DNA of 64,000 nucleotides from a virus. Taxonomy: Duplodnaviria; Caudoviricetes. The stretch spans positions 15,954-79,953 of IMG/VR virus record IMGVR_UViG_2921473944_000001; one strand, given 5' to 3'. The translations under genes were made by a program, and so were the position numbers. Below are positions 26,230 through 44,055 of this stretch, in pieces. The notes beneath the pieces are model-generated. The model did no database searches and was not told where the DNA came from. It saw only the letters and a program-made list of their open reading frames with translations. Numbering within the stretch: position 1 is the first letter of the stretch; each line of letters starts with the position of its first letter.

Positions 26230-26491
26230 ATTGAACCCTCCTTTGTTTTTTTCATAACATAGTAGGATTCTATCGCGATTTCTAGTAACCTCTGTACTTT
26301 AATTATTCAGCCAGTCCTCGAGCATCTTTATAGCAGCATTTTCATACATCTTACAAGTCTCGTTTACTAACTGTTTATTAAACATATCTTTGGTTTTACA
26401 CTGACCATCTGGATAATCTTCAGGATTGGCTACTTCTATCTCACATCTCTCGAAAAATGGACAGGTAAGGCATTCATGAAGTCTTCTAAGT

Positions 26492-26878: not shown

Positions 26879-26883
26879 AATAA

Positions 26884-27482
26884 TTACTCCTTTTCTTTAT
26901 CTCTTAATGTACAAACCAATTCATATATCATCTCTTTAGCTGTAAGGTCTGTACGAGCTTTCATAACGCCCTTGAAATAATACTCTACGAAAATATCAAT
27001 AGCTCTTTCTCGATTATCCTCACGAAGCCAAACCATACCATTAAATACATCGCCCTCATCGCCACTACACAGATACTTATGTCCATTATGATATGATTTG
27101 AAATATGCACGCCCACGAGTACAGTTTGATATAAGACCATATACGTCATCAATGTATTCAAGCGTACCTTTCGTAGACTCTAATTTACCTCCAAATATCC
27201 AGTATAACCATACTTCATCCATATCTAACTCTCCTGTGTAGCCCTTAATACATGTCCTACATTATCGACATAACACTCGTGCCAAATTGTGATAGGTTTT
27301 TCATCACCATCTGTAAGGTCAATCCAAGCTGCCAACACTGTATGATTAAATCGCATAGTTTCTACAGCTAACAACGCCGAGTCCAACGATAAACAACAGT
27401 CGTATGAACTTTCTCGATAAGCAAATCTATTAAAATTATCCTGAATAATATAGTTAGTCCAATATCTTTTCATTCTTACCAC
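26884..27482 (-). other. Two hypothetical proteins (26884..27222, 27225..27482)
   Basis: Packed ORFs with RBSs; the first is paralogous to 29727..30065. Confidence 0.6.
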
Positions 27483-27543
27483 CCTTTCTAAAAGAAAAAA
27501 GAGAAGCTAATTAAAGCCTCTCTTAATATTGTTCATCAATCTG

Positions 27544-28653
27544 TTATAAACTACCACTTGCGTTTGACAACCATGGGTCAGCACTCGGCAGCTTTGCCGT
27601 ATATTTTTTCACAAACTCATCTGGTGCAATACGAACCGGACTCTCAACAGTATCAACATTAGCTGCATATGTTTCCGACTCGACATCCATCATATCAAAT
27701 AACCAATCTGTAATAATATCCATAGCCCATGAAATATCAAATGTGCTACCAGCAGCTTTTGGATGACCACCGCCTCCGTAATTATGAGCAATTTCAGTAC
27801 CAAGATTAATATTGTCTCGAATTGTACGATAGCTAACCCTGCCACGTGAAATATCAATCATAGCAATGTAGGCAAACTCAGGATGTATCTCACACAGACG
27901 ATTACCGAGCTCACTAAAATACCGTTCAGCAAATATAACACCATATGTATTACCCCACTGGTCTGTTTTAACTGTAATCTGTCTCTCCTTTTGCTCTACA
28001 TAAATATCAATGTCTTTCTGTTTCTGTTCAAGTAAGAGTGTATCAGTTTCTGAGAACCACTCGTCTTGATGTAATGGCGAAGTACCAAACATGATACGCT
28101 TCATAGCCAGCTCAATGAATTTATCTCTACCATAAATATGAAAGAGATCGTTCATCTGCTTACTAACAAGTCCGTCTTCTCCTAATTCTTTCCAACGCCA
28201 AGTATCATAGTCTCGAACTATAGACACGAAACGAGATATTTTATTTTGAGTTGTCTGATCGTACGTAAGACTTAAACTATTACTCACATATAAATAGAAC
28301 AATTCAGTACCACTAGTCTTTACAGCATCTAAATATTCATATACAGTACACCAAAAGTAGTTATCCAATCTAAGAGCAGTTCCATGATGGTCAAATAAAC
28401 GTACTGTTCTCTCAACCTTATCTAAACAGTCAATCATACTAGCTACCTGATCGGAGACCGAAATATCAGTAATGAAAATCGAATCGTAACTCCTGTACAG
28501 ATCTTCGTTTTCCATGAATGCTTCTACTTTATCATCCACATCGTCATAGTTACAATACTCAACATCAACATTCTCTTTACCAAATGCCAAATACGCTAAA
28601 ACAGCACATCCGATACCGTCAAGATCGATATGTGTGAATATTTTAATTTTCAT
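27544..28653 (-). CDS. DHH/DHHA1 phosphoesterase (NrnB-like oligoribonuclease)
   Basis: THIDLDG, ITD, FDHH, SGT, GGGGHPKAAG motifs. Confidence 0.88.
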   Translation of the reverse strand: MKIKIFTHIDLDGIGCAVLAYLAFGKENVDVEYCNYDDVDDKVEAFMENEDLYRSYDSIFITDISVSDQVASMIDCLDKVERTVRLFDHHGTALRLDNYFWCTVYEYLDAVKTSGTELFYLYVSNSLSLTYDQTTQNKISRFVSIVRDYDTWRWKELGEDGLVSKQMNDLFHIYGRDKFIELAMKRIMFGTSPLHQDEWFSETDTLLLEQKQKDIDIYVEQKERQITVKTDQWGNTYGVIFAERYFSELGNRLCEIHPEFAYIAMIDISRGRVSYRTIRDNINLGTEIAHNYGGGGHPKAAGSTFDISWAMDIITDWLFDMMDVESETYAANVDTVESPVRIAPDEFVKKYTAKLPSADPWLSNASGSL

Positions 28654-28668
28654 AGATTTAAATCTCCT

Positions 28669-31600
28669 TTATTTGTAATATAAGTCACGCTCTTCCAAAG
28701 TGTTAAAGTGTGGAGGATTATCGTAACTAGTACTGCCACCCTCGTTTTTCGTCTTTTTAGGTCTACCTACTTTTTTCTTAGCTGGTTTTGAATCAGCATA
28801 TGACTCCCGAATATCAGAAACCTCTCTTTGTAATGCCTTGACCGTATTGTTAAAATTCTCCCGAATATCTTCATAAGACATCTCCATCCATTCTTTTCTC
28901 TGAGCACACTCTTCAGGACTTCCGCATCTCGCATACTGTCTATACTCAAATAGTAAATTCTCCAATGCCTTCTTTCTTTTTACATCAGACAGACTACTAC
29001 AAAGTTCTTCTACAATTTCTAATTCTTTTATTGTTAACATAATATTAATTCTCCTTTTATCTTACTTTTTTGATATATATAGATGAATATCTGAGTCGTT
29101 TCCAACAGTTTTGAACTTATATACTCTGGATTGTAAAATATCGTCTGATAATGCTTCCATAGCAACAATAGCTCTTGCTGAGAAACGACCACATGGCTCA
29201 TAGACATGAATTGTGATATTCTGCCTCTCATCGAGAATTTTCAAAACGTCAATAAGTTTAAAACGACCATTCTCCATCACCTTTTCGTTTTTCTCAATAT
29301 ATTCCTCTACATTTGCAAACACAGCTAATGGGTCTAAATCAGTTTTAGAATAATACCATAAAACATTATAATAAGGGATTCCTTCCTCAGCCGCACATTT
29401 AATCTTCCTGATAGCCGTGCCATCGTCATCAAATAGTTTTAAATAACTAGTACCAGGCTCGTAAAAATCACCGTCAAAATATGCCTCTCTATGATATAGA
29501 ATAGCTTTGTATTCCTTAACTGTAGTTTTGCCACTTCTAACATAAGCCCATACACTTCCCATACATTTCATAATATTAATACCTCCTTACATTTCATAAT
29601 ATATACACCAACATGTAACATATCGTAAGAATCAAAATCATCCAGTACTCCCAGTTGAGAATACCATACCCCATATGATTTAATATAAGACCTTCACCTA
29701 ACATAATCAGTGCGCTAATAATAAGTCTAAGAAACTGTCCCATTACTAATACTCTCCTCTATCAACTGCATTTTCAAAAGGTTCGTAAAAGTAGTCTTTC
29801 TTCTCTGCAGTGCTTCTTCCAACTTATTAATCTTCTCATTCTCATCTTCCATGAAAATATCAATAGCTTTAACCTTGTCTGCTTTTGGGAACCACACATT
29901 ATGGTTATACAGAACACCTGGCTTCGGATCGCAAGTCAGTACACGAAGAATCTTTCCATCGTCATTAATAATTCTAAATATAGCCTTATATTTACCCCGT
30001 ACCTGTAAATCCCCTTCATACTCATAGAGCTTTCCTCTGTAAAAATTGTATAAATATACTTTCATAAATATCGATCCTCCTCTATATTCTTACACCGCTT
30101 CCTGGTACGTTTTGTGAAATACATATGATGTTTCATTCGACAATCTTTCTTATCCGCGCCATTATGTAAATACGAGTTTCTTGCTTTTCTCTTTTTATTT
30201 TCACTTGCCATTAATCATATTCCTCAAGTTCCTCTGCTTTGAATTTAGACACCGCATCATATATAAGTTTCTTAATAGCTTCATGATTGTCAATAGAAAA
30301 CCTATCTGGTAATGAAACAGTCCCGTGATATATCTTTTCATCGAAATTGCTATAAGATTTAACATTTGTTCTAACCAGGCGACTACTATATATAATTTCA
30401 CGTGACGTTACACCGATACTATCACGCATACTGAATCTAACACCACGATTTATTTTAACATGCGCTAATTCTTTACCATTACAAATAGGATATTCTTCAA
30501 TACGCATTTCTTCCAAGTCAGCCCCTTGATGCAAACAAACATAACGTTCAGCGTCTTCCCGATTTATACATATCGTTTCAATATGATAGTCTGAATACTC
30601 ACCAGCAGTCACTACATATATTTTATCTAACTTATTCATACTGTACACTCACTTTCACACCAGACATGTCTTTAATAGCTTCATCGATTATCAATTTAGC
30701 TGCTTCCTTCTGACAATCGTTTGATAGAAAATCGAGATTGACATTGATATACTCTTTTCTGCAAGTTAAAATTATGCTGATTATTTTGTACATCTCATTT
30801 TTCTGATTTACACTAAACGTATCGCATATCATCGGTATAGTCATAATACTCTCCTTTTCTCACGCTTCCTCTAATTCGCCAAATATTTTTTCATAAGCAT
30901 TAATGTCATATTTAAGTAACATACATTTAGCTGTTTCTTCGTCAATAACAAGAGCATCACCTAGTTTAAATACAATAAGCCAGCGTCCCTTTATTGATTT
31001 ATATAATTTTACATTCACTGAGCGTTCGAATGTACTTAAAGCATACATACACTTAGTAGATATACAATCCATTTTATCAGTATCGTATTTCAGACCATTA
31101 TACACATAAACCATAATAAAATTACTCCTCTACAATATCTTCTATAGTGATAATACGTGACTGCAGAATATCACTCAAACTTTCATCATGCTCAACTTTA
31201 TGTTTAGCTACCATGTAATTGCAATAAAATGACGGAGAATGCATAATCCCAAGCAACACAAGAAACTTATACAGCTTACTATTAACACACTTCTTATTCC
31301 AATGTTTCCATACTTTTAATCTTAATAACATTGTCTTACCCTTTTCTTTCTACGATCTCCTTATATGCAGTAACATCCCAGTTATTACCATCTCCTGACC
31401 AATCTAACAACCATCGAATTTCGTCGATAGTCAATTTCAGAACATATTGTTTGATAAATATATGCATAGGTAAATCATTCTGAAAATACCGATAGCGACA
31501 TCTATATAAAACATCATCTCTAAGATTCGCCATATTTAATTCTGATGTACTAGGTCTACCACGTTTGCTTTCCATAAACTCATTTCTCCTCTCTAGTAGA

Positions 31601-32004
31601 TACAATCACACTAAGTTTACAGTCATAATTACTCCCACGGACCTCCTTAACTTCAAGACTCCGAAAATCTAAAGCAAGATATTTGAGAGCATATAGTGGT
31701 CTAATAGTACCAATAGGATTAAGACGATCGTTGAGATATAAATCTACCTCTATATCTGGTCCTGCTACTATCAAAACATCATTAAGCGTCATAATTATTT
31801 CTCCTCTCCGTTTATTACCACGACAATAGCGTTAGACGCTTCCGAAGCTTTGATATTAAGTACCTTAGCCTCAATCGTGTATATATTAAAACATTTAAGT
31901 GCATATAAAGGTTTTATAGCACAAATGTAATGTGAATCATCATTCTCGTACAACTCTATAGTGACCTCAGGATCTGTCACCGTTAAAACATTATCAAGCG
32001 TCAT
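28669..32004 (-). other. Operon of about 12 small hypothetical proteins incl. tandem paralogs 31580..31792 and 31795..32004
   Basis: Contiguous minus-strand ORFs; includes unlisted short ORFs of about 50 aa at 29590-29743 (membrane) and 30064-30210 (basic). Confidence 0.6.
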
Positions 32005-32079
32005 AATTATTTCTCCTCCTTATACTTTCATTACAAAAATAAAAGAGCCTAAGTCAATCAAGACCTAAGCCCCATCGGT

Positions 32080-32460
32080 TTAGATTTCGTCCAAGATAAT
32101 TCCCTGTGGTTTGAAGTCTAACAAATATACAAAACTCTCGCCCTGACGATATATCGTATAAATATCACCTACAGTCATTCCTTCTTTATAAATCCAACCC
32201 ACTAACTGTCCATTCTTTGTTCTCGAAAAACCCAGCATATCGTAAGCTTCGTTCAAGAATAAATATCCTCTAGTCGCCAACAAATCATACATATATTTTC
32301 GTTGGTTATTTAAAGTAAACCTATTCATGACGTTGTCTTTCGTCCATAACTGGTTATTCTCGTCAAAAAATCTACTATAGTTGTCCTCCTCAAGCTGAAT
32401 GACTACACTATCAGTACCAACGTTATCGCCAGACATAAGCTCTCTCAATTCATTTTTCAT
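32080..32460 (-). CDS. Stand-alone C-terminal domain of the DUF6353-like family (own cassette)
   Basis: RGYLFLNEAYDMLG..GQLVGW matches QGYLFLNDVYEMLG..GQTIGW of 58683..59606; promoter 32495, terminator 32035. Confidence 0.7.
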   Translation of the reverse strand: MKNELRELMSGDNVGTDSVVIQLEEDNYSRFFDENNQLWTKDNVMNRFTLNNQRKYMYDLLATRGYLFLNEAYDMLGFSRTKNGQLVGWIYKEGMTVGDIYTIYRQGESFVYLLDFKPQGIILDEI

Positions 32461-32512
32461 AATTCATTACTCCTTTCGTGACTACAAATCTTTTACCATA
32501 ACAGAATATGAT

Positions 32513-32710
32513 TTATTCGCGTCTACCGCGTACGGTTCTTTTATACTCTTTGCTCATTAGATCAACAAAAATATCAGAGCGAGTACGCCCTGTCTTAGCA
32601 CTCAACTCTGATAACATAGCTGCCTCTTCATCATTTAACCGAATCCGAATACCTTTTCGCTTAGCGTTCACTTTTGGCGGTCTACCTCGCTTTTTAATCA
32701 AAACTATCAA
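32513..32710 (-). CDS. Ribbon-helix-helix DNA-binding protein with RGRP motif
   Basis: KKRGRPPK..IRIRLNDEE..ML..L...GRTRSDIF. Confidence 0.7.
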   Translation of the reverse strand: MIVLIKKRGRPPKVNAKRKGIRIRLNDEEAAMLSELSAKTGRTRSDIFVDLMSKEYKRTVRGRRE

Positions 32711-33419
32711 CTCTCCTTATCTTCTTCTATTCTACGTCCAGCCCCATAGCAATCCTGTAAGTATCTTCTATATACAGCTGCCATATCATCACGAGCTCGT
32801 CTCATAGCTTCAGCCATTTGCTTATCATAATAGGTATTCTTCATTGTCATTTTGTTATGATAGAAATCTATAACAACAGCATCATCCATAAGTGGGTAAC
32901 TCTCTCCTATAAATATTTCCATATCGCCATAACCAGCATTCGATATCTGAGCAAGTAAATTACGCAATGAATCAACCGTAAATTGTTTTCCCATAAAGAT
33001 CAGTCCTCCTCTTCTCTGCATACTGGACTATCAATATCCCTTTTCTTGTAGACGTCACCTGTGGAGTTAACCCCATAGTTAGTTTCTTCATGACAACGCT
33101 TTAAGAACTCTGCTTTTTCATCAGTATTAAGGTCGTAGATTCGATTAAGAAAGTCATCTGTAGGCATATCGATACGCTTGTGTATAAACATATAATTTTG
33201 AAGCCTATCCTCACGAATAAGCGGCTCGTTGGATATATGTAAGAAATCAAAAAGTTCATGTACGCAATCGTTGCACAGATCGAAACATCTACCTGTAATG
33301 TTCCTATATGCACTATCTAGTTTAATATAGTCGACGGTCTCACCTTCATAGCGCAACGATGTGTTTTTATTCCTAATATAATATTTACCACATCTATCGC
33401 ATTTCTTAGCATCACTCAT
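32707..33419 (-). other. Two hypothetical proteins (32707..33021, 33000..33419)
   Basis: Overlapping ORFs; the second has CDRC..CNDC. Confidence 0.6.
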
Positions 33420-33465
33420 AATTCTTTACCTCCTAAAATTAATACAAAAGAAAAGAGACCCTAAA

Positions 33466-33687
33466 TTAGAGTCTCACCTCGCGCATCTGCTTAGCGATTT
33501 TTAATTTGCGTCGCCTTTCTTTTTCGATTTTTACCTGAATCTGATATACTTTATATGATACAAACATAATGACAAATTCCATGACCATAATATCTTTCGG
33601 TACATCAATGCCAAATAAGCATAATATAAGTCCTAATATCATAAGCACCATCATTGCCATTGTTGTTATATCCATTAATTTTTTCAT
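33466..33687 (-). CDS. Small membrane protein (own cassette)
   Basis: Two hydrophobic segments; start refined to 33687 behind promoter 33709. Confidence 0.6.
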   Translation of the reverse strand: MKKLMDITTMAMMVLMILGLILCLFGIDVPKDIMVMEFVIMFVSYKVYQIQVKIEKERRRKLKIAKQMREVRL

Positions 33688-33805
33688 AATCAATACCTCC
33701 TTAATCTTTCTATAACAGCCCAAGAAAGATTCGCGAATTAATGTGCCTATTTTCAGCTTTCGCATTTACTGTATACACAATAAATATAAAAAGAAGAGCC
33801 TAACA

Positions 33806-34012
33806 TTAAGTCAAGCTCATCATTTTCTCAAGCTGAGGAGCGATTTGTTTATATAACCCTTCGCTCATCAAATATTCGTTACACTCGGTACCAAATACAT
33901 CACTCCGCCTACACATTACACTAGTCGGATTAACACCAACACTCTGTAAAATATTTATAAAGCCCTGCTCTGTTTTTGTACCAGGTTTCACTATAAATTT
34001 TCTGATCCCCAT
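33806..34012 (-). CDS. Hypothetical protein (own cassette)
   Basis: Promoter 34037, RBS AAGGAGG, terminator 33787. Confidence 0.6.
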   Translation of the reverse strand: MGIRKFIVKPGTKTEQGFINILQSVGVNPTSVMCRRSDVFGTECNEYLMSEGLYKQIAPQLEKMMSLT

Positions 34013-34487
34013 AAATATCAATCCTCCTTTTACTTTTCTATAAGAGGACCAGAATATATCGCGAATCATTTATCCGGTTTCCACTCCATTGGTTTATGCG
34101 AAATTTCACCCAATGGTTCACGGATACACCCAAGACATGGTCTCTTATCAGCAGGCATCCAATAATACTTACACGTCTTGCAGTACAATCCGAAATATAA
34201 TTCTTTTACATCATTCTCCACCAGAACTCATCTCCTGTTCCGTATAATTGCGATGAAGTAATGCAATCTTAAAAGCAACATAATCTCGAGAATTCTCATC
34301 TGGTAAATATCCAGCTAATAATCCTTTTACCTCTGCTTCGAATTTTGTATCCAATTCTTCTTTTGTTTCTGACATGCTCATTTTGTCTCTCCTTTTTTCT
34401 AGGTCTTAACACATGCTCGTAGTTATATGTGTCTCGACCATACCAATTTTCTTCATACATCATATATCACGTCTCGCTCATGTAATA

Positions 34488-34525
34488 ATAAAAAATCCCA
34501 CAAGCCTATAACAGACTCATGGGAA
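34488..34525 (-). terminator. Terminator closing the toxin-immunity-like module
   Basis: CCCATGAGTCT-GTTAT-AGGCTTGTGGG followed by ATTTTTT. Confidence 0.65.
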
Positions 34526-34534
34526 CACCACTAA

Positions 34535-34765
34535 TTAAATACTGTAAACACTTATTATCTCAGTTGCTTTAAATTCAATCGGATTGATGAACTTTTTACC
34601 ATCGTCAAGTCTGAGAAGATCGGTAAGAATAATCGCTTCGATTTCTTCCGGTACATTATCCTCAGCATCGATATATTCGTCTACAATACCTTCGTATGTA
34701 ATATCATCAATGTCAACGATTCTTACCTTTGAACCTACTAGCTTTTTTAAATTAATCATATGCAC
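34535..34765 (-). CDS. Small acidic beta-rich protein (orphan immunity-like)
   Basis: GSKVRIVDIDDITYEGIVDEY; follows the immunity-like gene. Confidence 0.55.
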   Translation of the reverse strand: MHMINLKKLVGSKVRIVDIDDITYEGIVDEYIDAEDNVPEEIEAIILTDLLRLDDGKKFINPIEFKATEIISVYSI

Positions 34766-34767
34766 GT

Positions 34768-34935
34768 CTACCTCAACACTTTTGAAATATCACCATCTCG
34801 TATTGTTATAGTATCCCAATCAGGTCCTGGTAGTTCAACATCAATTAAATATGCTACCCCAGGTTCTAATATTTCAACTACAACACCGTGACGTCCGTCT
34901 TTTAGAATTACTTTATCATATAATTTTACAATCAT
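34768..34935 (-). CDS. 55-aa DUF4926-like putative immunity protein
   Basis: Not in ORF track. MIVKLYDKVILKDGRHGVVVEILEPGVAYLIDVELPGPDWDTITIRDGDISKVLR; ATGA overlap with the upstream stop; GAGGTG RBS. Confidence 0.65.
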   Translation of the reverse strand: MIVKLYDKVILKDGRHGVVVEILEPGVAYLIDVELPGPDWDTITIRDGDISKVLR

Positions 34936-35909
34936 TTCGACACCTCTTTCTTTGTTACATAAGCACTCGTTAATTTTACACTAGCTCCGTTCTTTTCTTG
35001 AATCCAAGCAGTGCATACGTTTGCCGTTTTTCCATTTGGACCGTTTAAATTCATCACCTGCTGATACCGCATTCCATACCCGTCATCACCTTTTTCTTCC
35101 AATTTACGTGAATCGAAATTATCAGAAATATTAGCCATGAGATCTTTATAATTATCTAATGTATATCCTAAAGCCACCTCGAACGCGTGTGCTTTGTCTG
35201 GTGCTTTATTTGGATTCAAAGCATATTGTGTAAACTTTTCTTCTGCCATATTGACCCTTTTAATTTTAGTGATCCTATCCGACGAACTATTTGTGTTTAA
35301 AATCACCTCATTATGATCAATAGGATAAGGTGGTCCGTTCTTTACACCCCACTTCATTCCTTTTACACCACTATGCTCGATATCTTTGTCGTTGTCAAGT
35401 TCATTTAACACTTTTCTAATATTCTCCAAAATAAACTCAACAGACTTTCTGGTCTTTCTGCTCAATTTCATATATGGACCATTTTTATCATACCAGTCAA
35501 ATATCTCATACAAATTTTCAGATCGCCAACTGAATGACCACCAATCACAAATCATTTCGAGAATATAGTTTTCTGGCATATCTATGATCGTCTCAGCTTC
35601 GTCCGGATCGTCATGATTCAGAATCCAATACTGCCAGTGATGAGGGTTACGATGAATATGAAGCAGCCAAGCATATTCATAATCCTGAATAACCTGATAT
35701 GATCTATTCTTACCATAGAAATATTCATCATACGGCTCGTACTCATCTTCATTATTTTTACTACGATCATGATCAAAACAAATCTGCTGCGTTAATCTCA
35801 ACTCCTGATCGACTGGCACAAGAGAAGGTATTCTATCATGAATGAACTTAAACGCTTTCTTCACGCCATCTCTATGATCCTGCAAATATAAATCATACTC
35901 TCTGCTCAT
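34932..35909 (-). CDS. Fusion: DUF5662-like HD hydrolase + HSGVKGMKWG motif + DUF6883-like putative RNase toxin domain
   Basis: H..HDRSK..HIHRNPHH..EMICDW (HD fold); EHSGVKGMKWGVKNGPPYP; KFTQYALNP..KAHAF..ALGY..YGMRY..TAW..KLTSAYV. Confidence 0.7.
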   Translation of the reverse strand: MSREYDLYLQDHRDGVKKAFKFIHDRIPSLVPVDQELRLTQQICFDHDRSKNNEDEYEPYDEYFYGKNRSYQVIQDYEYAWLLHIHRNPHHWQYWILNHDDPDEAETIIDMPENYILEMICDWWSFSWRSENLYEIFDWYDKNGPYMKLSRKTRKSVEFILENIRKVLNELDNDKDIEHSGVKGMKWGVKNGPPYPIDHNEVILNTNSSSDRITKIKRVNMAEEKFTQYALNPNKAPDKAHAFEVALGYTLDNYKDLMANISDNFDSRKLEEKGDDGYGMRYQQVMNLNGPNGKTANVCTAWIQEKNGASVKLTSAYVTKKEVSK

Positions 35910-36264
35910 TTAACATCTTCTCCCTTTTCTCTTTAGCTTCTGCGTGCTTTAAGTTATCATCTTCTCTCTTCAATTTCACTTCAACAGCACGTAACACATC
36001 ACTTTCGCTAATATGAAAAATGGACTTAAGGAATTCGAGACAAATATATGCATCCGCTATCTCTTCCAAAAGTCCAATCTTATCGTCATAGCCACGAATA
36101 TGTTTGCTTACTTCCTGCTGCAGTTCTGCAAATTCTTCCATCGCAATAGTACATTTAGTTTTCCAATTACAACTCTTTAGACTTCTTCCAATAATATTCT
36201 TACGCTGCTTCTTGGAATAATGAGGAGCGTCTTTCAGCCCATTTACAAATCTTTCCCTATTCAT
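35893..36264 (-). CDS. MazG-like nucleotide pyrophosphohydrolase
   Basis: EEFAELQQEVSK..LLEEIADAYI. Confidence 0.75.
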   Translation of the reverse strand: MNRERFVNGLKDAPHYSKKQRKNIIGRSLKSCNWKTKCTIAMEEFAELQQEVSKHIRGYDDKIGLLEEIADAYICLEFLKSIFHISESDVLRAVEVKLKREDDNLKHAEAKEKREKMLNEQRV

Positions 36265-37009
36265 TTCTTATCTCCTGTCTTTTTATTATTTCTTTATATT
36301 CTTCTACCCATTCGTCCGGTATTGGCTCATCAACCAATGCGTAACGACGCATAGCTTCGAAAAGACTATCTTTTCTGTAATTATCACACATGAATTCCCA
36401 TAAAACTCTAGGTATCACCCCTAATGGTGGTTTTGTTACACTCATCTCATATCTCCTTTAAACTTGCTCCAAATATAACACCATGGTAGTTTTTTCCAAG
36501 CTACCACATCATACCGCTCACAGTAAATATCAGTGAATACACGGTAATCCTCGATCGGTGCTTTACCAGACTCATACACTTTGTACCCGTCAAACACAGT
36601 CTGTCTTGTATCATTAATCCATCTCCGATCCCATTTACGAAAATATAAGTACAGGACTTTCGGCTCGTTCACTCCATACCCGTCCTGTACAGTACAAAGA
36701 TACCAACCGTCTTTTCTTGGTTTGAAGAAACAGTATGGTCTCCAAAAGTTAAATATCAATGTTCTTACCTCCAATCAGTATATTAATCGTATTTAATACA
36801 GATTCTTCGTTCCATATAGCTACTACACGGTTACATAATAGCTCATCAGACAGCGAACCTATAAGATAACCTTGCGCGATACACATGATTTCATCGCCAT
36901 CCTCATTTATCAGTCTGACATCATTTGCATTAATAAGTGGTAAGATATCACGCAGTAGTATATCTGTGACGATCTTAAGCCCTGTTTTTGTACATTCAAT
37001 ATAACTCAT
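36257..37009 (-). other. Three hypothetical proteins (36257..36445, 36442..36774, 36749..37009)
   Basis: Overlapping minus-strand ORFs. Confidence 0.55.
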
Positions 37010-37021
37010 CGTTCCCCTCTT

Positions 37022-37345
37022 CTAATCGAATTCGTAGTCTTCTGATTCATTTTGGTAAATCATGATCTTGATTGGCTTGCCATTGCTACCGTCACTCTCA
37101 ATGTGAATGATACCATTGAATTGCAAATAGTTATTGCCATCCGGATCGACCATTGTAAGACTCCCATCTTCTCTTTTATCTGACACTGAAATATTAATCG
37201 GCTCCAATGATTCTGCTTTCTTTTCACTTCCACTGCAGCCTGCCAATCCAAGCGTAGCTGTAAATATAAATAATCCTGCTATAAACTTAGTCTTCATTCT
37301 CCTACTCCCTTTAAACATTTGATATAATATCAGTACGGTCTTCAA
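37022..37345 (-). CDS. Putative lipoprotein
   Basis: Signal peptide and lipobox LAGC. Confidence 0.65.
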   Translation of the reverse strand: MKTVLILYQMFKGSRRMKTKFIAGLFIFTATLGLAGCSGSEKKAESLEPINISVSDKREDGSLTMVDPDGNNYLQFNGIIHIESDGSNGKPIKIMIYQNESEDYEFD

Positions 37346-37447
37346 AAGTTAAATATCAATCCTATAACCTACTTTTTAAAATAAAAGAGAAAAGACCCAG
37401 CTAAATTTAGCCGAGCCCTTACTCTAATTAGCGACTATAATCAAATA

Positions 37448-37636
37448 TCAATCACCCGTATAGTTCCACAAGTTTCCATAAAATTCTCGTGCTCCCTTAT
37501 ATTAGTCGTCGGTAATCAATCCATCATCCCTCGCTTTACCGAAAGCTTCTGCAAACGACATCTGCACAGGATAAGGATTATACATACCTTCGAATTTGTT
37601 ATAAAGCTCGTTCCATTCCATTCTTGTCTTTGTCAT
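37448..37636 (-). pseudogene. Small cassette gene with internal TAA (37502-37504)
   Basis: MTKTRMEWNELYNKFEGMYNPYPVQMSFAEAFGKARDDGLITDD*YKGAREFYGNLWNYTGD*; RBS and promoter upstream, terminator downstream. Confidence 0.6.
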
Positions 37637-37988
37637 ACTTTTAATCTCCTTTCTTACTATTAGTCATAAAGGAACAGTTTTTATCGCGTAAAAAGAAAAA
37701 GACCCAGATGTCACTCTGAGTCCATCCTCTTAATTATTTATAATATCCAATAAGTTTCAACAAGTTTCAAACATATCTATTACCTGCCTATGTGTTAAGT
37801 ACCCATAATAAGCACATATTTTATAAACGAAATCAGATCGTCTATTAAATTCTGTCATATCATAATGATACTTTATCGCATTTAAACTATATAAATAGCT
37901 TTTAACTTCTTGCATTGCTATCATATAAATCACCCCTTTCTATAATAGGAGCTGTAATGTTCGCGTAGAAAGAGGAAAGACCCAGACG

Positions 37989-38285
37989 TTACTCTGAGTC
38001 TTTTAGTATTTCGATGATGTTTTCTAGGTCCACAATTTCTTGCTTCATCCGTTCTAACTGCACTTCTAGCGAATGTAATTTAGTGTTCAAGTCTAAGTTA
38101 TCGCCACACGATTTCTTATATTTGGGATGTTCGTTCATGAATATATTCAAATTATACTCCTGAATAATATACCCATCTTTTTTAGAATTCTTGTCTGCTT
38201 TAAGCGCCCCATTTCTACACCATCTTCGTACTTGCTCTTCCGTTACATTTAGAAAACACGCAATATCTTTTACTTTGTAAACCAT
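37989..38285 (-). CDS. HTH_17/MerR-like DNA-binding protein with coiled coil (own cassette)
   Basis: YKVKDIACFLNVTEEQVRRWCRNGALKA. Confidence 0.75.
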   Translation of the reverse strand: MVYKVKDIACFLNVTEEQVRRWCRNGALKADKNSKKDGYIIQEYNLNIFMNEHPKYKKSCGDNLDLNTKLHSLEVQLERMKQEIVDLENIIEILKDSE

Positions 38286-38347
38286 AAAATATCACTCCTT
38301 TCATTAAAGGAACAGTTTTTATCGCGTAGAAAGAAAAGGTCTAGTTA

Positions 38348-38557
38348 TTAGACCAGTTCTTCCAATTGTTTAATTGCCCTCTCATACCGTCTGGTGAACT
38401 CACCAAATGTGAGAGTATCAGCCTCCGTATTAATAAGCTCATAATACTCGAGAGCGTCCTCTGCGAACGAGATAATATCTAATACCCGATCATCACAGTG
38501 TTCAGCCAACTCTCTGTACTCACGACTTATTTTCTCTACGTCTTCAATACTTAACAT
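38348..38557 (-). CDS. Hypothetical protein (own cassette)
   Basis: Promoter 38574, RBS GGAAGGTG, hairpin at 38328-38360. Confidence 0.6.
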   Translation of the reverse strand: MLSIEDVEKISREYRELAEHCDDRVLDIISFAEDALEYYELINTEADTLTFGEFTRRYERAIKQLEELV

Positions 38558-38785
38558 AATAGTTCACCTTCCTTTCATAATAGGAGTTGTAATGTTCGCG
38601 TCTACTTCAGTTCATTAGTTTTCTTAATGCATTTAGCCGCATTCTTACAAATATGATAGTGCTCACAACTTACTCGAATATCCTTAACCTCGTTGGACAA
38701 AAATACATTGCATTCAGCGATGACCGGTTTAATCTTAGTACAGTGATCACAAACCCCTTCCAGAAAGCATCCGTCGAGTTTAATA

Positions 38786-39538
38786 TTAGTCATTTGGTTT
38801 CTCCTCTCCTATAATCAATTCAGAATATGGCAGTGACTCAATCCACTTACAGAACTCGCACCATTCATCCAACTTATGATTCTTCCTGCTGTAATACATA
38901 TTAGCCAGAACCTCATAGTTTAACATAACATTACGAGTCTGGTTATAGCTGCTCGGAAGAAGCTGAATCATCTGCCACCAGCATTCTTTTTTAGTCGGAA
39001 TGTAAGTGTCGTTCCAACCACTGTTAGCAAAGTATAAATTTCGTTCCCCGTCTGATTTACAGTTGAAAGCATCTCTCCAGAAATTTAATTCGCGAATACT
39101 TTCATTGAATAATTTCATTGTGCTTTTTGTTAAATGATCACAACTAAAATCATCTACTGTAAACTCTTTCGCCTGAATCTTATGCATAGTACTGCAAGAG
39201 TTCGCAACAGTACCAACCTTATACGTATCAAATTCTTTCCACCAATATAACGGCGCCGTAATTCTCACATACACCGGCATCATCCTCATGAACTTTCTAT
39301 GATCTGTACCCGCTTTTGCTAACCGCTGCATGAGCGAGTGGTCGTTTTCGCCTAATACATATCTTTGAGTATTACCACACCATTCAGGGCTAAATGCACA
39401 ATGACCTGAACACAAACCGGAATCGCAACCATAACCACTGTTGCTCTTCTCCCAGCTATTCATCGGATTACGCATTCCTTCAATAATAAATTCCATCTGC
39501 TCCGGACTTGCCAGAACTACATTTTCTAATTTAATCAT
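38786..39538 (-). CDS. ThyX-like (flavin-dependent thymidylate synthase-related) protein
   Basis: HRKFMR..I.APLYWWKEFDTYKVG..SCSTMH..QLLPSSY..R..H...EW; canonical RHRxxS motif absent. Confidence 0.5.
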   Translation of the reverse strand: MIKLENVVLASPEQMEFIIEGMRNPMNSWEKSNSGYGCDSGLCSGHCAFSPEWCGNTQRYVLGENDHSLMQRLAKAGTDHRKFMRMMPVYVRITAPLYWWKEFDTYKVGTVANSCSTMHKIQAKEFTVDDFSCDHLTKSTMKLFNESIRELNFWRDAFNCKSDGERNLYFANSGWNDTYIPTKKECWWQMIQLLPSSYNQTRNVMLNYEVLANMYYSRKNHKLDEWCEFCKWIESLPYSELIIGEEKPND

Positions 39539-40667
39539 TCACAATATCCTCCAAGTTCAATGTTTACGATTTCATCAGCATCGATTTCCAAAATTTCCAC
39601 TTCAATATCAGACATATCATCAACAATAGTCATCCACCCTCTTGCAATTTCTTTTTTGTAGAGTTCCTTGATTATTAAATCTTTAGCTGCTTCTGCTGTA
39701 TCTTTTTTCGTATAAATACCAAAAATATTTTCGATATGACCATAACCATCATAATAAGTGTTTCCGTGAACCACATATAACATCATTAATCTTCATCCTC
39801 CATTTTCTTTTTCAGTTCATTACGTGCATATGTACATGCCGAATCATTTTCGCAGCAAATAATAGTATCGTGTTCTGGAAAAGTCGTATAACCTTTATCA
39901 GAAATATAGGGTTTAAAATAACGACAATTTTGACAATATGGTTCAACAATCACCCTAATCATCTATCTCATTGCCTCCAATACAATTTCTTTCTTACATT
40001 GAGGACAATTTATGTACGTACTGCCTTTCGCGATACCAGGAAATCCACCTGTATGAACTGTTGTCTTAGCTCTAATATCCTCTTCCTCAAAAGAAAATAA
40101 GCAGCCACAATAATCACAACGCTTCTCCTGTCTCGTCCCTGGTTTAATAATTTTAATCATCTCTTTTATTCCCTTTCTTTAAACGCTTCCGCTATTCTCT
40201 CAAGATTCTTAAATAAGTTCTCGAAGGAATCACGTTTCGTATCAAAGCAATATAGCTCCGATTTGTCTTTTGTTTGATCGTCTGTAAAACTAAAATATAA
40301 ATCACAACCCAGTGGCGCTCTTGTCATACATAACCTAAGACCATGCGCGATGGCAACCGATTCAAATTGACTTAAGAAATCATAAACATCCATTTTGCAT
40401 TCCTCCTTTATTTTTTTCTAATAATTGGTGAGATGTCTCCCACCAATTAATAACGGGTGCCATAACGGCTGCTTCAAAATCAGCTTTAAAGTAATCTATC
40501 TCATCGTCGCTTATGGCATGTGTAAAAATTGGACCATACCCTAAACCATAATTAACGTCGTAAATTCGTATTCTCCACATACCACAAGGCATACAAAGAT
40601 GCTCTAATGTAAAAATCAAATTGCTATGTTTTTCAAAAAACTCTTTAATCATTTTCTACTCCTTTCT

Positions 40668-42936
40668 AAAAATAAAAGAGAGCCTTAGCCGAATATAGCC
40701 AAGACCCTCTGTCCTGTTAAAAACCAATTTCTTTATATCCTTGAATAAATGCTACTGCCATTTCACGATTACGCCACATCTCCTTTCTAATCAGCTCATT
40801 ATAGCGAAGAGTCTCGTTAGCGTCATTTAACATTTTTTCATCTCCTGTTAATTTAGCCGCTACCTTAGCCCCCTCTAAAAAACGGTTGATCTCTTTTAGT
40901 TTTTTGTAAGCTTTAATACGTTCAAACATAAGTATCATCTCCTCCTTTTGGTTTTCTCATTAGAGGCTTTGTTTTAATCGCGAATTATTGTTCAAGAAGA
41001 ATACTATCCAGTAAACGTTTCATAGCATTGGTGACATACGCATCTTTATCTACCATATTATCAAGCTCTTCATAAGGAAATACGTGTCTTAAGCATCTAC
41101 CACTACTGTGATCAAATATACGGACACCAGTAGACTTTAAATCATCATAACGATCAAAACTAATAGAAACACCATACTTTCTGCACAGTTCTATAATCTC
41201 TAACATAAACATCATTCCCCCAAATCGATATACTCTAATGAATCGACATACTCTTGACTCCAGAACCAATTAGTAAATGGACTCTTACTCCAGTATTTTG
41301 CCGAATATACAATTTTATTCCAGTTATAAGCCTTCTCTATAACTTTTGATCTCGTATTATCTTCATATTCACTATTAACACATTCTATCTGTTTAATAAT
41401 AGACTCGCGTTGCATATGTGCTTTGTAAATAGATACATCGACTCCAGTATGTCCTATAATAATAACTACAACTACAATGAATGTTGCAAGTCCGCCTAAT
41501 AACATACAGACAAGGCCACCAACGTCAAGATCGTAATACTTACAGCTATCCTCAAACTTATAATGCAAAATAGCACCAGCAATCGTTACAAATATACATA
41601 ACAAAGTTATAACCATTTATTCTGTCTCCTTTACAATTCCTAAAAATCTTACAGTCTCATCTCTAAGACACACCCAGTATCTCTTTCCTTTATATACAAC
41701 TTCATCACCGTCATAGTTATAATCCTTGTCCGGCTCGGAAGCATATGCTAATATCATTACTTTCGTAGTATTATTCATCTTTCCAATTCTCCTTATCAAT
41801 AAACGGCTCGATTCTTTTGTAAACGTCACGCGGTACAAGATTCTTATACCCCCAGTCAAATAGGTTAAATAACGTCTTATAATATGATTCGATACATTCA
41901 TAACCGATACGCTTGTTACACTGATCTTCCAGCATAGCTGCATAGTCATGTTTGGCTATTGCATTCAATATAATTATATGATTTTATAGGTGTTATTGTT
42001 TTTTAAATATAAAATAACCGGTGCTATTAATATAAATATGTTAATAAATATCATCTCTATCCCCCTTATGCTGACAGAAGGTCTTTAATACCCTCAAGTA
42101 ATTCCTCTTTGTCATCTTTGGCTTTCTTATCCTTCTCAACCGCTACATCTAACGCTTCTTTTGCTTTAAGAACTTTATCTTTGTTTGTAAACAACGTGTC
42201 AATAGCTTCGTACTTAGCTACAGCGTCATCACGTTTCTTGTCAGCCGCCTCAATTTTCTTAAGGCACTCCTCGCGGATACGATTAATCTCTTCCTTACAC
42301 TCAAGACGAACACGAACTACTTCTGCCTCCGCGTTACTCTTAACTCTCTCGGCATCACGACATACATCGTCATTTGCTTTAGCCACACGATCTGCATGAA
42401 ATTTAGCGAATGTCTCCTGATCCATTTCTTTAAGTCTCTGAGAATATGCAGTCTTAGCTTCTGCATCAGCCTTAGCCAATTCCTCACGCATTTTAATATC
42501 TTTAATACGTTCTTCTTCAGCAATGCGATTAAGCTTAGTCTGATGAATCTTCTTCTCTTCCTTACGCTCAATATGTCCAGCTGCCCAGTAACATCCCGCC
42601 CCTCCAGTAAATACTGCACTGCCTACTACCATCATCCATTTTCCGATTTCTTTAATTTTAGCTGTGTTCATCATAATCTGTTATCTCCTTTTCACCCCAT
42701 TATTTTTGAGAATAGTTTCAAGATCGTGAATAATTTCCTGCTGATGATTCACAATTCCAATAAGCTCGTTTACTTTAATAACAAGCATTTTGTCGGTATG
42801 CCCATATTCATCAGCTACATACCATTCTTTGTTTAAGCGTTTTACTTTTCGTTTATTAGCCATGGCTCCTCCTTTCTACGCTTGAGAAATAAAAGAGAGT
42901 CTTAGCCAAATATAGCCAAGACCCTCTGTCCTGTTA
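40668..42936. repeat. About 50-bp direct repeat pair of terminator junctions (about 40670 and 42887)
   Basis: aaataaaagagag(c/t)cttagcc(g/a)aatatagccaagaccctctgtcctgtta, 2 mismatches. Confidence 0.85.
41771..42054 (-). pseudogene. Membrane-anchored protein gene with apparent 1-nt deletion
   Basis: ATG 42054 with AAGGGGG RBS gives MIFINIFILIAPVILYLKNNNTYK; one extra A in the A4 run (41982-41985) joins it to NHIIILNAIAKHDY... Confidence 0.5.
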
Positions 42937-43210
42937 CTTATGAAACTTTACTCCTCTTCTTTGGAGTTTTCTGGTTCACCCCATTCATATCGACCACTTT
43001 TCTTTTTTGGCTCGTCATCATCTGAGAGTTTATCGACTGTATGATCTAAAACCACGCCAACTGCCGCACACACAAACATGTCGACAGCCTTAGCTACTGC
43101 TTTACCCATACACAACCCAAAACCTACAGCAAACGCCGCTTTTCTTAATCCTTTTGTGTTCAATACTACATCGTATTTCTCCATAATTGTTCTCCTTTCA
43201 AAATAAATTT

Positions 43211-44040
43211 CTAAGTATCCATAACAGCCCTTGTATTTTTCGCGTAGAAATAATAATCAACGTACTCTTTAGCAATATCAAGATACTCGCTAGGATAACA
43301 TCCAAGATTACCAGTAAATACCCCAGCGTCGATTTTCCAGTTTGATCTATATAGACCAAGTTGCTCCCATTTAGATAAATATGAATGACTCTCAGACTCT
43401 GGGATTGAATCCTGTACCAGGTCGATAACTTCTCGTACAGTCCATAAATCACATAATACGAACTTTATACACATTCTGAAAAATGTCTTTTCTTTATCGG
43501 TCATAATACTCACCTCACTTTATAACAATTTTGTGCTTTCCTGATGAATTTCTTAATACCTTTAATCCGGCTGATTTAATATCTCCGATCTGCTCATTGT
43601 AGCTAATAATCTGACGCGTACAACCATGTATATAATTAGCGTACATTTTATCGAGATATTCTTCATACTCAGCTTTTCGCGAATAAATCTCCATCTTCAA
43701 GCTATCTTTAAACGCATTGGTAGATTTATATGCATCCATATAATCAGTTAACATATCAATAAAATTATTCATAATATATATCTCCTTATTTTCTAACTAT
43801 TCTTAGTTTGCAATAGTCCTGATCGTTATCGGTGTAAACAACTTTATACCTATCATATAGTCCTCTATATATCAGATATTTATATATAGCATCAAGCAGA
43901 CCATTTTCATTACTTTCATACGATCCACCTATATCAGCACCATGTCGTACGGCTTGCTCTAAAATATCATTAATCAAATCTATCTCTGTATCGAATGAAT
44001 TTAATGGTGTAGGTACTAACTTTTCATACTCTTCTGACAT
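43211..44040 (-). other. Three hypothetical proteins (43211..43513, 43515..43772, 43786..44040)
   Basis: Packed ORFs downstream of the helicase. Confidence 0.55.
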
Positions 44041-44055
44041 AATCCATATTTCCTT

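Follow-up and report, generated by a model that had tools for sequence, protein, structure and literature searches.

Genes and features of the locus

Annotation of the window, the whole 64,000-nucleotide stretch of DNA from a gut-bacterium phage that was analysed, showed a gene for a three-part fusion protein followed by two small genes and a terminator-like hairpin, all on the minus strand. The features of the locus were as follows:

35893..36264 (minus strand), gene for a MazG-like NTP pyrophosphohydrolase that overlaps the start of the toxin gene (phrog_2245, E 7e-23)
34932..35909 (minus strand), toxin-fusion ORF of 325 aa, in the order DUF5662, DUF7211 tag, DUF6883
35385..35909 (minus strand), DUF5662 N-domain, residues 1-175, the conserved carrier, HD-phosphohydrolase-like (Pfam PF18907 and predicted structure)
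35322..35378 (minus strand), DUF7211 tag, residues 178-196, opening with Ile-Glu-His; its 3' end is the swap junction (Pfam PF23847)
35286..35321 (minus strand), variable disordered linker, residues 197-208, first stretch of the exchanged cassette (pLDDT <50; diverges between tip types)
34935..35285 (minus strand), DUF6883 tip, residues 209-325, predicted BECR-fold RNase-like domain, with the stop codon at 34932-34934 (Pfam PF21814 and model)
34768..34935 (minus strand), 55-aa acidic gene, predicted cognate immunity gene of the DUF6883 tip (ATGA coupling; phrog_34731, E 4e-9)
34535..34765 (minus strand), 74/76-aa acidic gene starting at ATG 34759 or GTG 34765, predicted orphan immunity gene for Ntox50 tips (phrog_1865, E 3e-8)
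34496..34524 (minus strand), terminator-like hairpin and T-run closing the operon (hairpin in the sequence)
34761..35315 (minus strand), exchanged cassette of 555 bp, comprising linker, DUF6883 tip and 55-aa gene (blastn against L001)

The Pfam scan of the 325-aa protein matched DUF5662 at residues 3-162 (E 4e-33, 114.6 bits, cut-off 27) and DUF6883 at residues 214-320, corresponding to profile positions 3-110 of 110 (E 7e-17, 62.1 bits, cut-off 27). DUF7211 was matched at residues 177-190 just below its cut-off of 27 (E 6e-6, 25.9 bits), while the same copy scored 29.4 bits, above the cut-off of 27, in the genome-level search, and its core motif was identical to that of the four other copies in the genome, which scored 36-47 bits. 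The original prediction had described an HD-type protein of 325 aa with a tag and a basic C-domain of about 110 residues, a 55-aa ORF overlapping the toxin stop as ATGA, and a second small acidic ORF with a terminator, and all of these were present. The tip was mildly basic (pI 8.9), the ending TAW...KLTSAYV of the protein corresponded to residues 300-318, and the product of the second small ORF was acidic (pI 4.2) and 74 aa long when counted from the ATG at 34759.

The early-region location given in the same prediction was also borne out. The toxin gene is among the non-structural genes of the phage, in the replication/early region and at a distance of about 23 kb from the head genes. It falls inside the zone of a promoter-like motif with 20 copies, none of which is in the structural region. 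Its neighbouring genes are nucleotide-metabolism genes, and the overlap with the MazG-like gene upstream was conserved, a gene of 122-123 aa overlapping the toxin-gene start likewise in L001-L005.

Exchange of tips at the tag and pairing with downstream genes

The query fusion matched 1315 cluster representatives (178-569 aa), and relatives of the N-domain were encoded in 541 IMG/VR stretches, the identifiable ones being mostly phages of gut or rumen Clostridia. A set of 85 loci related to the fusion gene was compared and an N-domain tree was built on them. Four tip families interchanged across the 85 loci, namely DUF6883, Ntox50 and the unnamed tip3 and tip4, and at least 22 tip changes were required by the tree. 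Distant members carried Gln_amidase/Tox-PL1, AAA_18 with DUF6582, or unnamed tips. For the identity of tip3, the atlas search gave a weak lead to Ntox24 alone (score 0.87, family on 15% of members).

Close relatives with N-domains 86-99% identical bore Ntox50 or DUF6883 behind the same tag, those with Ntox50 in place of DUF6883 being 86-88% identical across the N-terminal 69%, while L057 and L059 had identical N-domains and different tips. Identity in the alignments ended right after the tag, and the tag itself was conserved across all tip types. DNA homology placed the left breakpoints 3-48 nt past the PPYP codons in all nine independent pairs (9/9). Between the window and L001, blastn showed 91% identity down to 35316, none from 35315 to 34761, and homology again from 34760; the L001 equivalent of the 555-bp cassette is 358 bp long, includes an Ntox50 tip and has no homology to it.

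The fusion could be read as a gene-calling accident or a recent read-through, with DUF5662 and the tag-toxin normally separate and without joint function. Most DUF5662 proteins do stand alone (160-205 aa), free-standing leader-tag-DUF6883 genes exist, and in L010 the two parts are encoded by separate ORFs. However, the best 120 of the 1315 matching representatives were mostly full-length fusions, and the fusion was kept in frame throughout, to an N-domain divergence of about 45% identity and with at least six tip types. Truncated forms stopped inside or just past the tag and thus look like decay products of a fusion, and an accidental origin is considered very improbable. The tip was lost in L011 and L080 and split into a separate ORF in L010, so it is dispensable.

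The tip and its own small downstream gene co-varied in 82 of 82 loci (36/36 for Ntox50, 29/29 for DUF6883, and 14/14 and 3/3 for the remaining tip classes). The 55-aa family was the first gene after the DUF6883 tip in 29 of 29 loci, with a 4-nt overlap each time. It was also found behind MuF-DUF6883 genes (40-42% identity, E 1e-8 to 3e-9) and behind free-standing tag-DUF6883 genes (56-62% identity), and the pairing was seen behind three different carriers in all. The statement in the original prediction that DUF6883 is paired with small proteins in MuF loci was correct, this family being found downstream of it there, but the assignment of the small protein to DUF4926 (PF16277) failed for the 55-aa product, which scored 15.7 bits (E 0.0096) against a cut-off of 29.1. 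DUF4926 was weakly matched by 9 of 14 members of the family (best E 0.003), and the protein may be a distant DUF4926 relative. The 55-aa gene is predicted to be the cognate immunity gene of the DUF6883 tip, and its product would bind and block the tip inside the producing cell.

Both small ORFs had been taken for coupled immunity-like genes, and the comparison supported the 55-aa ORF as the partner of this toxin and not the second. As a second antidote to DUF6883, the 74/76-aa ORF was rejected, since its family lies directly behind 36 of 36 Ntox50 tips and most DUF6883 loci lack it. Three seeming exceptions to the Ntox50 rule (L056, L083 and L084) were discarded after tblastn located the partner directly after the toxin stop. 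The 76-aa gene of the window was 93% identical to the gene directly behind the Ntox50 tip in the sister phages L001-L003; judged from these sequences, it is the Ntox50 partner, kept in the window as a putative orphan antidote. Recombination at the tag would have put the DUF6883 tip and its antidote in place of an Ntox50 tip, while the Ntox50 antidote stayed.

Orphan arrays were also found in L052, L053, L055, L004, L022 and L085, with up to two orphans and with four tandem copies in L022. The orphan genes were intact with dN/dS values of 0.12-0.32, which are pairwise values from which the orphan branch cannot be isolated; the 74/76-aa gene of the window gave 0.32 against its cognate copy. This comparison showed the predicted orphan antidotes to be under purifying selection. 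No immunity family for Ntox50 is listed by Zhang et al. 2012 (PMC3482391), and candidate antidote families are supplied here for both DUF6883 and Ntox50.

The tabulation of post-tag domains and downstream genes that had been suggested for DUF5662 homologues thus showed that tips vary and that partners follow the tips. The conserved N-domain and tag, the end of homology 3-48 nt past the tag and the unbroken co-variation of tips and partners support the tag as the junction where toxin tips and immunity genes are swapped onto a conserved phage enzyme.

Predicted folds and relation to known toxins

AlphaFold modelled the DUF5662 domain as all-helical with a pLDDT of 97.8. The best structural matches were the HD-GYP/PgpH/V-cGAP3 cyclic-nucleotide phosphodiesterases, aligned across 130-148 residues, and in the wide structural search the seven top matches were all HD phosphodiesterases, but with Z scores of only 6.8-8.7. 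Foldseek gave no match for the domain at E <= 0.001, and the profile search of its alignment against PDB sequences gave none, so that only the wide structural search pointed to HD enzymes. Residues H47, D48, H84, N88, H90, H91 and D122 were invariant in 67 homologues and H12 was nearly so; the His and Asp residues among them are candidates for the H...HD...H...D metal-binding set of the HD phosphohydrolase superfamily. The model points to an HD-phosphodiesterase-like domain.

The DUF6883 tip was modelled with a pLDDT of about 92 as N-terminal helices and a four-stranded sheet. Its best structural match was CdiA-CT Kp342 (6cp9_G), with a Foldseek E of 3.9e-4 and probability of 1.0 and a VIA Z of 11.2 (rmsd 2.1 A, 99/109 residues), followed by the EC3006 toxin (Z 8.4-8.6) and by RelE, BrnT, HigB and YoeB (Z 4.5-7), while the profile search of the tip alignment against PDB sequences gave no match. 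Structural comparison showed a toxin fold, and the model indicates a BECR-fold RNase-like domain. Invariant tip residues were K225, Y229, K239, R281, T300, W302 and T314. The catalytic residues of Kp342 include K157 and Y160 (PMC9086364), with which K225 and Y229 align by alignment offset, not by residue-level superposition; Lys239 seems to take the position of Kp342 His170, by offset alone. The CdiA-CT toxins of Kp342 (with its immunity protein CdiI) and EC3006 (6CP9, 6CP8, 6VEK) are tRNA-Ile acceptor-stem nucleases with a Lys-Tyr-Thr triad (PMC9086364), which in the Kp342/EC3006/ColD group is accompanied by basic residues, and the tip similarly has Lys...Tyr near the domain start and a conserved Thr/Ser near the end. 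RNase activity of the tip is judged quite likely, and the tip would most likely cut tRNA as these toxins do. In CdiA, too, tips are swapped at a short conserved motif, and orphan modules occur. In contrast, sequence identity to the CdiA-CT toxins was only 14-19%, the immunity proteins are unrelated to CdiI in size, and CdiA is delivered by a type V secretion filament of Proteobacteria, whereas the present gene belongs to a phage of Clostridia.

The C-domain might instead be an RNA-processing partner of the HD enzyme, acting in tRNA or nucleotide turnover, with no toxin involved and the small genes unrelated. The neighbouring nucleotide-metabolism genes fit this, and cooperation between HD enzymes and RNases is known from RNA repair and turnover. 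However, in close relatives the C-domain gives way to unrelated domains, among them Ntox50 and a papain-fold glutamine deamidase, which is at odds with a fixed partnership of two enzymes; the small genes follow the tip in every one of the 82 loci and over three carriers, and the nearest structures are contact-dependent inhibition and RelE-type toxins. Such a role is regarded as highly unlikely.

The locus was further compared with polymorphic toxin systems in the sense of Zhang et al. 2012 (PMC3482391). Exchangeable unrelated tips were found on a conserved N-region (N-domains up to 100% identical), a co-varying gene lay immediately downstream of the tip in 82/82 loci, orphan immunity genes followed in the window (the 76-aa gene) and in the arrays, and the tips DUF6883, Ntox50 and Tox-PL1 were common to other toxin families. 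DUF6883 is present on MuF and Phage_min_cap2 proteins, and Ntox50 and Tox-PL1, both established as domains of polymorphic toxins, are found on MuF too (PMC3482391). Features of a type II toxin-antitoxin pair were not seen, as the antidote gene lies downstream, matches no DNA-binding family and belongs to an operon with several other genes. Taken together, the locus is very probably a phage-borne toxin-immunity cassette.

The MuF toxins of temperate phages (Jamet et al. 2017, PMC5576092; PMC3482391) likewise combine a conserved N-part, exchangeable C-terminal toxins and small immunity genes, and they use the same tips (DUF6883, Ntox50, Tox-PL1), with the same 55-aa family behind DUF6883. Unlike in those toxins, the carrier here is an HD-like enzyme domain with a DUF7211 tag instead of a MuF domain, and the fusion gene lies in the replication region, whereas MuF genes lie between the portal and capsid genes; the link to the head is known for MuF from SPP1 gp7-type proteins and here is suggested only by the tag. 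Phage_Mu_F (PF04233) was not found in the fusion protein or anywhere in the 79,953-bp record, which supports the earlier suggestion of a non-MuF phage polymorphic toxin. S8-PTS and similar systems (Li, Tan and Zhang 2022, PMC9424270) also have a conserved N-module, varied BECR RNase tips and an immunity gene that matches the tip, whose release has been attributed tentatively to a dedicated peptidase (PMC9424270); those toxins carry signal peptides and are secreted by bacteria, whereas the fusion protein lacks a signal peptide and the prohead protease of the phage is the candidate for the peptidase.

In the collection of cultured phages, only four proteins matched the toxin gene, all of them weakly and none with the tip. 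The literature search found no paper mentioning DUF5662, DUF7211 or the tag motif, and this large family of phage polymorphic toxins was found described in no searchable paper.

The tag and a possible route of delivery

Five copies of the tag were found in the genome of the window, four of them at the N-termini of proteins adjoining the terminase. These four genes, part of the tag system outside the toxin locus, lie directly upstream of the large terminase gene (7030..8763). The features concerned were:

9052..12481 (minus strand), four tag-headed genes with products of 189, 355, 251 and 85 aa (motif scan; Pfam DUF7211 at 36-47 bits, above the cut-off)
3617..5554 (minus strand), prohead protease (Peptidase_S78), acidic spacer and capsid protein in one ORF (phrog_3270, Pfam S78)

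The spacer between protease and capsid protein contained six hydrophobic-x-His sites that resemble the opening of the tag. Further tagged ORFs occurred in six of six genomes with a tagged DUF5662 and in none of three with an untagged one. A comparable arrangement was present in Lactococcus phage 1706, whose ORF7 (EU081845.1, ABV91214.1) bears a DUF7211 tag at its N-terminus and a second one inside the protein, at residue 185, and lies directly upstream of the large terminase, like the four tagged genes here; protease and capsid protein are fused in this phage as they are here, and hydrophobic-x-His sites are present. Unlike the fusion of the window, ORF7 has no DUF5662, recognised toxin tip or immunity gene. 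It is annotated as 'structural protein', a label of the GenBank depositors for a protein without a toxin domain in a distant phage.

In the proposed mechanism, one gene would give a protein of three joined parts, namely an HD-type DUF5662 domain, a disordered tag of about 20 residues and the DUF6883 tip. The tag would load the fusion into the procapsid, a role that it probably has in the four terminase-side proteins too, and the S78 prohead protease may cleave where the tag opens with Ile-x-His. Together with the phage DNA, the toxin would then reach the next cell and harm cells without the matching antidote, while stored orphan antidotes would protect lysogens from related phages. Searches of the whole record for an integrase and a serine recombinase found nothing, despite the 'provirus' label in IMG/VR, so the lysogen-protection step is unsupported for the phage of the window. 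Loading of the fusion protein into the capsid by the tag is the preferred route, held tentatively at slightly under even chances. The capsid-targeting sequences of phage T4 offer a parallel: the internal proteins IPI-III and Alt, which are loaded into the head and injected, carry them, and they are removed by the prohead protease gp21. As in T4, a short peptide is shared by unrelated proteins (five here), and where T4 has a protease site attached to the signal, the hydrophobic-x-His pattern here recurs in the protease-capsid spacer. In contrast, the T4 signal is strictly N-terminal and has no sequence relation to the tag, of which one copy here is internal, behind a folded domain, and for which loading and cleavage are putative.

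Alternatively, the same cassette may act solely within the infected or lysogenic cell, in addiction, abortive infection or timed host shut-off, the toxin becoming active once its small antidote decays or is titrated, and the tag serving only as a flexible joint and recombination site. This is consistent with the location of the gene in the early/replication region, behind the MazG-like gene and in the zone of the promoter-like motif, and those free-standing tag-toxin genes that were looked up likewise sit in early regions; these positions are no argument for packaging. The tag is, in addition, disordered in the model (pLDDT <50) and equals the recombination breakpoint, and MuF or another known carrier is absent. 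However, the antidote is encoded downstream, is tightly coupled and has no DNA-binding domain, unlike classic type II antitoxins, and intact orphan antidotes to toxins that are not encoded are hard to explain unless the toxin comes from outside. The same tips are carried on MuF head proteins, and the tag is conserved at the protein level on unrelated terminase-side proteins and only in tag-system genomes, which argues for a function beyond that of a joint. A purely intracellular role is considered unlikely, though well short of negligible. The account as a whole, with cassette, tRNA-cutting tip, antidotes and procapsid loading, is held to be somewhat favoured.

More broadly, DUF7211 may be a general cargo-loading and processing signal in a large lineage of Clostridia phages with HK97-type protease-fused capsids, with the DUF5662-tag-toxin genes as a second, MuF-independent delivery route; the chances of this are put somewhat below even. 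If true, any tagged protein would enter the head and be injected with the DNA, whether its tag is N-terminal or behind a folded domain. Besides exchangeable toxins of the RNase and deamidase types, the cargo would include an HD phosphodiesterase-like enzyme and perhaps the RNA polymerase of the phage, and conflict among related phages would have left its record in the stored orphan antidotes.

The classes of polymorphic toxins are defined by the conserved carrier of the tip, and phages were to our knowledge known so far for one such carrier, MuF. The HD-like enzyme with its short tag would be another phage carrier, one that is abundant and for which the comparative evidence of tip exchange and antidote pairing is unusually clean. 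As the toxin system is linked to a tag that is common to proteins of the head module, the question whether toxins and enzymes are injected with the DNA becomes directly testable.

Gene layout and the putative toxin locus

The window covered bases 15954-79953 of the 79,953-bp IMG/VR virus record, which is labelled as a provirus and rated 100% complete by CheckV. Nearly all phage genes in the window were on the minus strand, a helicase and an endolysin among the products encoded, and the toxin gene was located in the non-structural part of the genome. The features are listed below.

3617..5554 (-): Peptidase_S78 protease, acidic spacer and capsid protein in one ORF
5702..7012: portal
7030..8763: large terminase
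9052..12481: four tagged basic proteins (189, 355, 251 and 85 aa), directly upstream of the terminase
14723..17863 (-): single-chain RNA polymerase, matching a PHROG labelled 'RNA-dependent RNA polymerase'
34524..34496: hairpin and T-run, end of the unit
34535..34765: acidic ORF of 74/76 aa, beginning two bases after the 55-aa ORF
34768..34935: 55-aa ORF, overlapping the toxin-gene stop by ATGA
34932..35909 (-): 325-aa toxin ORF in three parts, DUF5662 (residues 3-162, E 4e-33), DUF7211 tag (residues 177-190) and DUF6883 (residues 214-320, E 7e-17)
overlapping the start of the toxin gene: MazG-like gene
52674..56909: DNA polymerase

The original description of a 325-aa fusion with an overlapping 55-aa ORF, an acidic ORF and a terminator was accurate, as its domains and coordinates were confirmed. 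A promoter-like motif (CGCGA, 15 bases, TWATR) occurred in 20 copies, compared with 0.43 in shuffles, all on the minus strand and in the non-structural region only (23372..62761), and may be the promoter for the phage's own RNA polymerase.

Exchange of tips and predicted antidotes at the tag

When 5.8 billion proteins were searched, 1315 cluster representatives (178-569 aa) matched the toxin protein, and among the best 120 of these the post-tag families were DUF6883 (79), Ntox50 (28) and an unnamed tip (5). Ntox50 was found on proteins 86-88% identical to the query across its first 69%, and in the protein alignment this identity spanned the tag and ended directly past its Pro-Pro-Tyr-Pro terminus. 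With the N-domain and tag as query, 2452 matches were obtained from 1.8 billion representatives, the majority being stand-alone proteins of 160-205 aa with no tag, so that the fusion is taken to derive from an enzyme that is otherwise autonomous. Tagged DUF5662 members reached 816 aa, and their other post-tag domains were a papain-fold glutamine deamidase (Tox-PL1), AAA_18 with DUF6582, and unnamed ones. A weak DUF6582 match was frequent in long DUF5662-tag proteins, before or after the tag (homologues P0134-P0136, P0139, P0145, P0148, P0151, P0154 and P0168).

The window and its syntenic sister phage L001 shared 91% DNA identity from 36777 down to 35316, beyond which 555 bp in the window were unrelated to 358 bp in L001, and homology returned at 34760, where the 74/76-aa gene begins. 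The left breakpoint fell 3-48 nt past the PPYP codons in all nine pairs with near-identical N-domains and different tips (9/9), which bears out the proposal that the tag is the junction where tips are swapped. The N-domain maximum-likelihood tree of 85 loci required at least 22 tip-type changes, where as few as 4 would suffice for a single origin of each type, and loci L057 and L059 had identical N-domains with different tips. Tabulation of homologues with their post-tag domains and downstream genes, for which 80 IMG/VR loci, five metagenome loci and the window were compared by clustering tips and the four following ORFs, agreed with the original prediction in that tips varied after the tag and the next genes co-varied.

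Table. Tip types and the family of the next gene
Ntox50: D1, 68-80 aa, 36/36 loci (including three where the partner was located by tblastn)
DUF6883: D2, 54-55 aa, 29/29 loci, with a 4-nt overlap every time
tip3 (unnamed type): D4, 76-78 aa, 14/14 loci
tip4 (unnamed type): D20, 55 aa, 3/3 loci

The 55-aa gene of the window belongs to D2. Its 76-aa gene belongs to D1, the partner of Ntox50, with 93% identity to the gene directly after the Ntox50 tip in L001-L003, and is therefore an orphan, the putative antidote to a tip lost from this phage. Arrays of tip3, D4 and D2 (L004, L005, L012 and others) and of DUF6883, D2, D1 and D4 (L052, L053, L055) were present, while in L022 (IMG/VR 3300029134_000052) the Ntox50 gene was followed by four tandem diverged D1 paralogues, an immunity array. 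All orphan antidote genes were intact, with pairwise dN/dS of 0.12-0.32 against their closest usable cognate copies, a pairwise value that does not isolate the orphan branch and a range that omits three comparisons, two saturated ones in L022 and one whose dS was undefined. In L010 (3501-4640; N-domain 94% identical) a stop 11 codons past the tag interrupted the toxin gene in the linker, but its tip, with 95% identity to that of the window, was kept as a separate ORF from an internal Met, and the 55-aa D2 gene was still next; tag, tip and antidote were all absent from L011 and L080.

The tag and tip query revealed three further DUF6883 contexts, namely Phage_Mu_F, Phage_min_cap2 and free-standing proteins of 145-189 aa (short leader, same tag flavour, tip). 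In L086 and L087 an overlapping gene of 54-57 aa, 56-62% identical to the D2 of the window, came after each free-standing gene; the gene after MuF-DUF6883 in L093-L095, located in classic terminase-portal-MuF modules, had 51-55 aa and 40-42% identity to D2 (E 1e-8 to 3e-9). This recurrence of D2 relatives after DUF6883 on other carriers is the strongest comparative evidence for D2 as the DUF6883 antidote, and the predicted pairing of tip and antidote is, on sequence evidence, independent of the carrier. The pairing of DUF6883 with a small protein, MuF carriers included, thus stood as first proposed, while the 55-aa protein bore only a weak likeness to DUF4926 (15.7 bits, under the cut-off of 29.1). 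Comparison of these loci showed what reads as a polymorphic toxin-immunity cassette, with tip-plus-antidote units swapped by recombination at the tag and old antidotes left behind.

An Asn-Leu-Gln-Phe-Phe-Ala-like motif, corresponding to the site at which the Prp protease cuts when trimming ribosomal protein L27, preceded the DUF6883 tip in many relatives on DUF5662 and MuF carriers (P0025, P0032-P0036, P0040-P0045, P0299) and was absent from the window protein. The MuF-DUF6883 locus L095 (1427-1747) had a Peptidase_Prp gene three genes downstream.

Predicted structures of tip and N-domain

In the model from a 79-sequence alignment, the tag and linker (residues 171-208) were disordered and the tip had a pLDDT of about 92. 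Structure prediction of the toxin, as originally proposed, gave a tip whose best Foldseek match was the CdiA-CT toxin of Klebsiella pneumoniae 342 (6cp9_G, E 3.9e-4, probability 1.0), with Z 11.2 and rmsd 2.1 A over 99/109 residues in a second aligner. The next structural matches were the E. coli 3006 toxin (Z 8.4-8.6) and RelE, BrnT and HigB (Z 5-7). The Kp342 and EC3006 contact-dependent inhibition toxins cleave the tRNA-Ile acceptor stem using a catalytic Lys-Tyr-Thr triad with His and Arg, which in Kp342 are K157, Y160, H170, R252 and T255 (PMC9086364). Across 79 tip homologues, K225, Y229, K239, T300 and W302 were invariant and R281, T314, S315, Y317 and T319 nearly so; by structural-alignment offsets, K225 and Y229 would correspond to Kp342 K157 and Y160. 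We infer RNase activity for the tip, probably directed at tRNA.

The N-domain model was all-helical (pLDDT 97.8), and Foldseek returned no match for it at E <= 0.001. The top seven matches in a wide structural search were HD cyclic-nucleotide phosphodiesterases (HD-GYP, PgpH, V-cGAP3; Z 6.8-8.7 over 130-148 residues), and an HD metal site is compatible with the invariant H47-D48, H84, H90, H91 and D122, giving moderate support for an HD-like N-domain. That N-domain and tip form a non-toxic enzymatic partnership, or were fused by accident, appears unlikely.

The tag in the head module and a possible route of delivery

The tag motif was present in five copies in the genome, one in the toxin gene and four at the N-termini of proteins near the terminase. 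One flavour continues Asn-Gly-Pro-Pro-Tyr-Pro and accompanies enzyme or toxin tips; the second continues Arg-Arg-Tyr-Gln-Asn-x-Asp-Gly and accompanies basic, low-complexity bodies. One to five more tagged ORFs were found in 6/6 complete or near-complete genomes with a tagged DUF5662 and in 0/3 phage genomes with an untagged one; the tag belongs to a genome-wide system. Two free-standing proteins, a GNAT acetyltransferase of 223 aa and an Ntox50 protein of 159 aa, are likewise headed by the toxin-type flavour (P0339, P0341). A hydrophobic helix ends two of the four tagged proteins beside the terminase, and an EcsC-family gene (10155..10847, +; Pfam E 2e-14) lies between two tagged genes, its neighbours being on the opposite strand.

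In Lactococcus phage 1706, ORF7 adjoins the terminase, is labelled 'structural protein' by its depositors and has two tags, one internal at residue 185, while the capsid gene (ORF10) is a protease-capsid fusion of the same kind and layout as that of the window. The spacer of the window fusion (about 180 aa, acidic, with a tandem duplication) contained six hydrophobic-x-His sites, and one, Asp-Val-Glu-His|Ser, closely resembled the Asp-Ile-Glu-His|Ser opening the tag of the toxin gene. The tag, virion and protease evidence is suggestive only, pointing to possible loading and cleavage of tagged proteins. The RNA polymerase N-terminus (17647..17863, -) had an acidic segment followed by a sequence that half matches the tag (Met-His-Tyr-Gly ... 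Gly-Arg-Tyr-Pro-Tyr-Gly), a hint that this enzyme may be handled like the tagged proteins.

In the proposed mechanism, the 55-aa protein would block the RNase tip inside the producing cell. Since toxin and antidote would be co-produced, the toxin would have to act in places where the antidote is missing, and the fact that the orphan antidotes are intact speaks for toxins that come from outside. Given the tag shared with the head module and the parallel with MuF, the capsid is the likeliest vehicle, and delivery by this route is put forward tentatively. The main rival, an intracellular module such as one for addiction or timed shut-off, finds support in the early-region position of the toxin gene, is at odds with the argument from orphan antidotes, and is considered less likely.

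Polymorphic toxin systems as a kind are already known, the nearest family being the MuF toxins (PMC5576092, PMC3482391), and full-text literature searches found no mention of DUF5662, DUF7211 or the tag motif in any paper. What is new is the DUF5662 and DUF7211 carrier, the location of the toxin gene, and the families put forward as candidate antidotes to DUF6883 and Ntox50.
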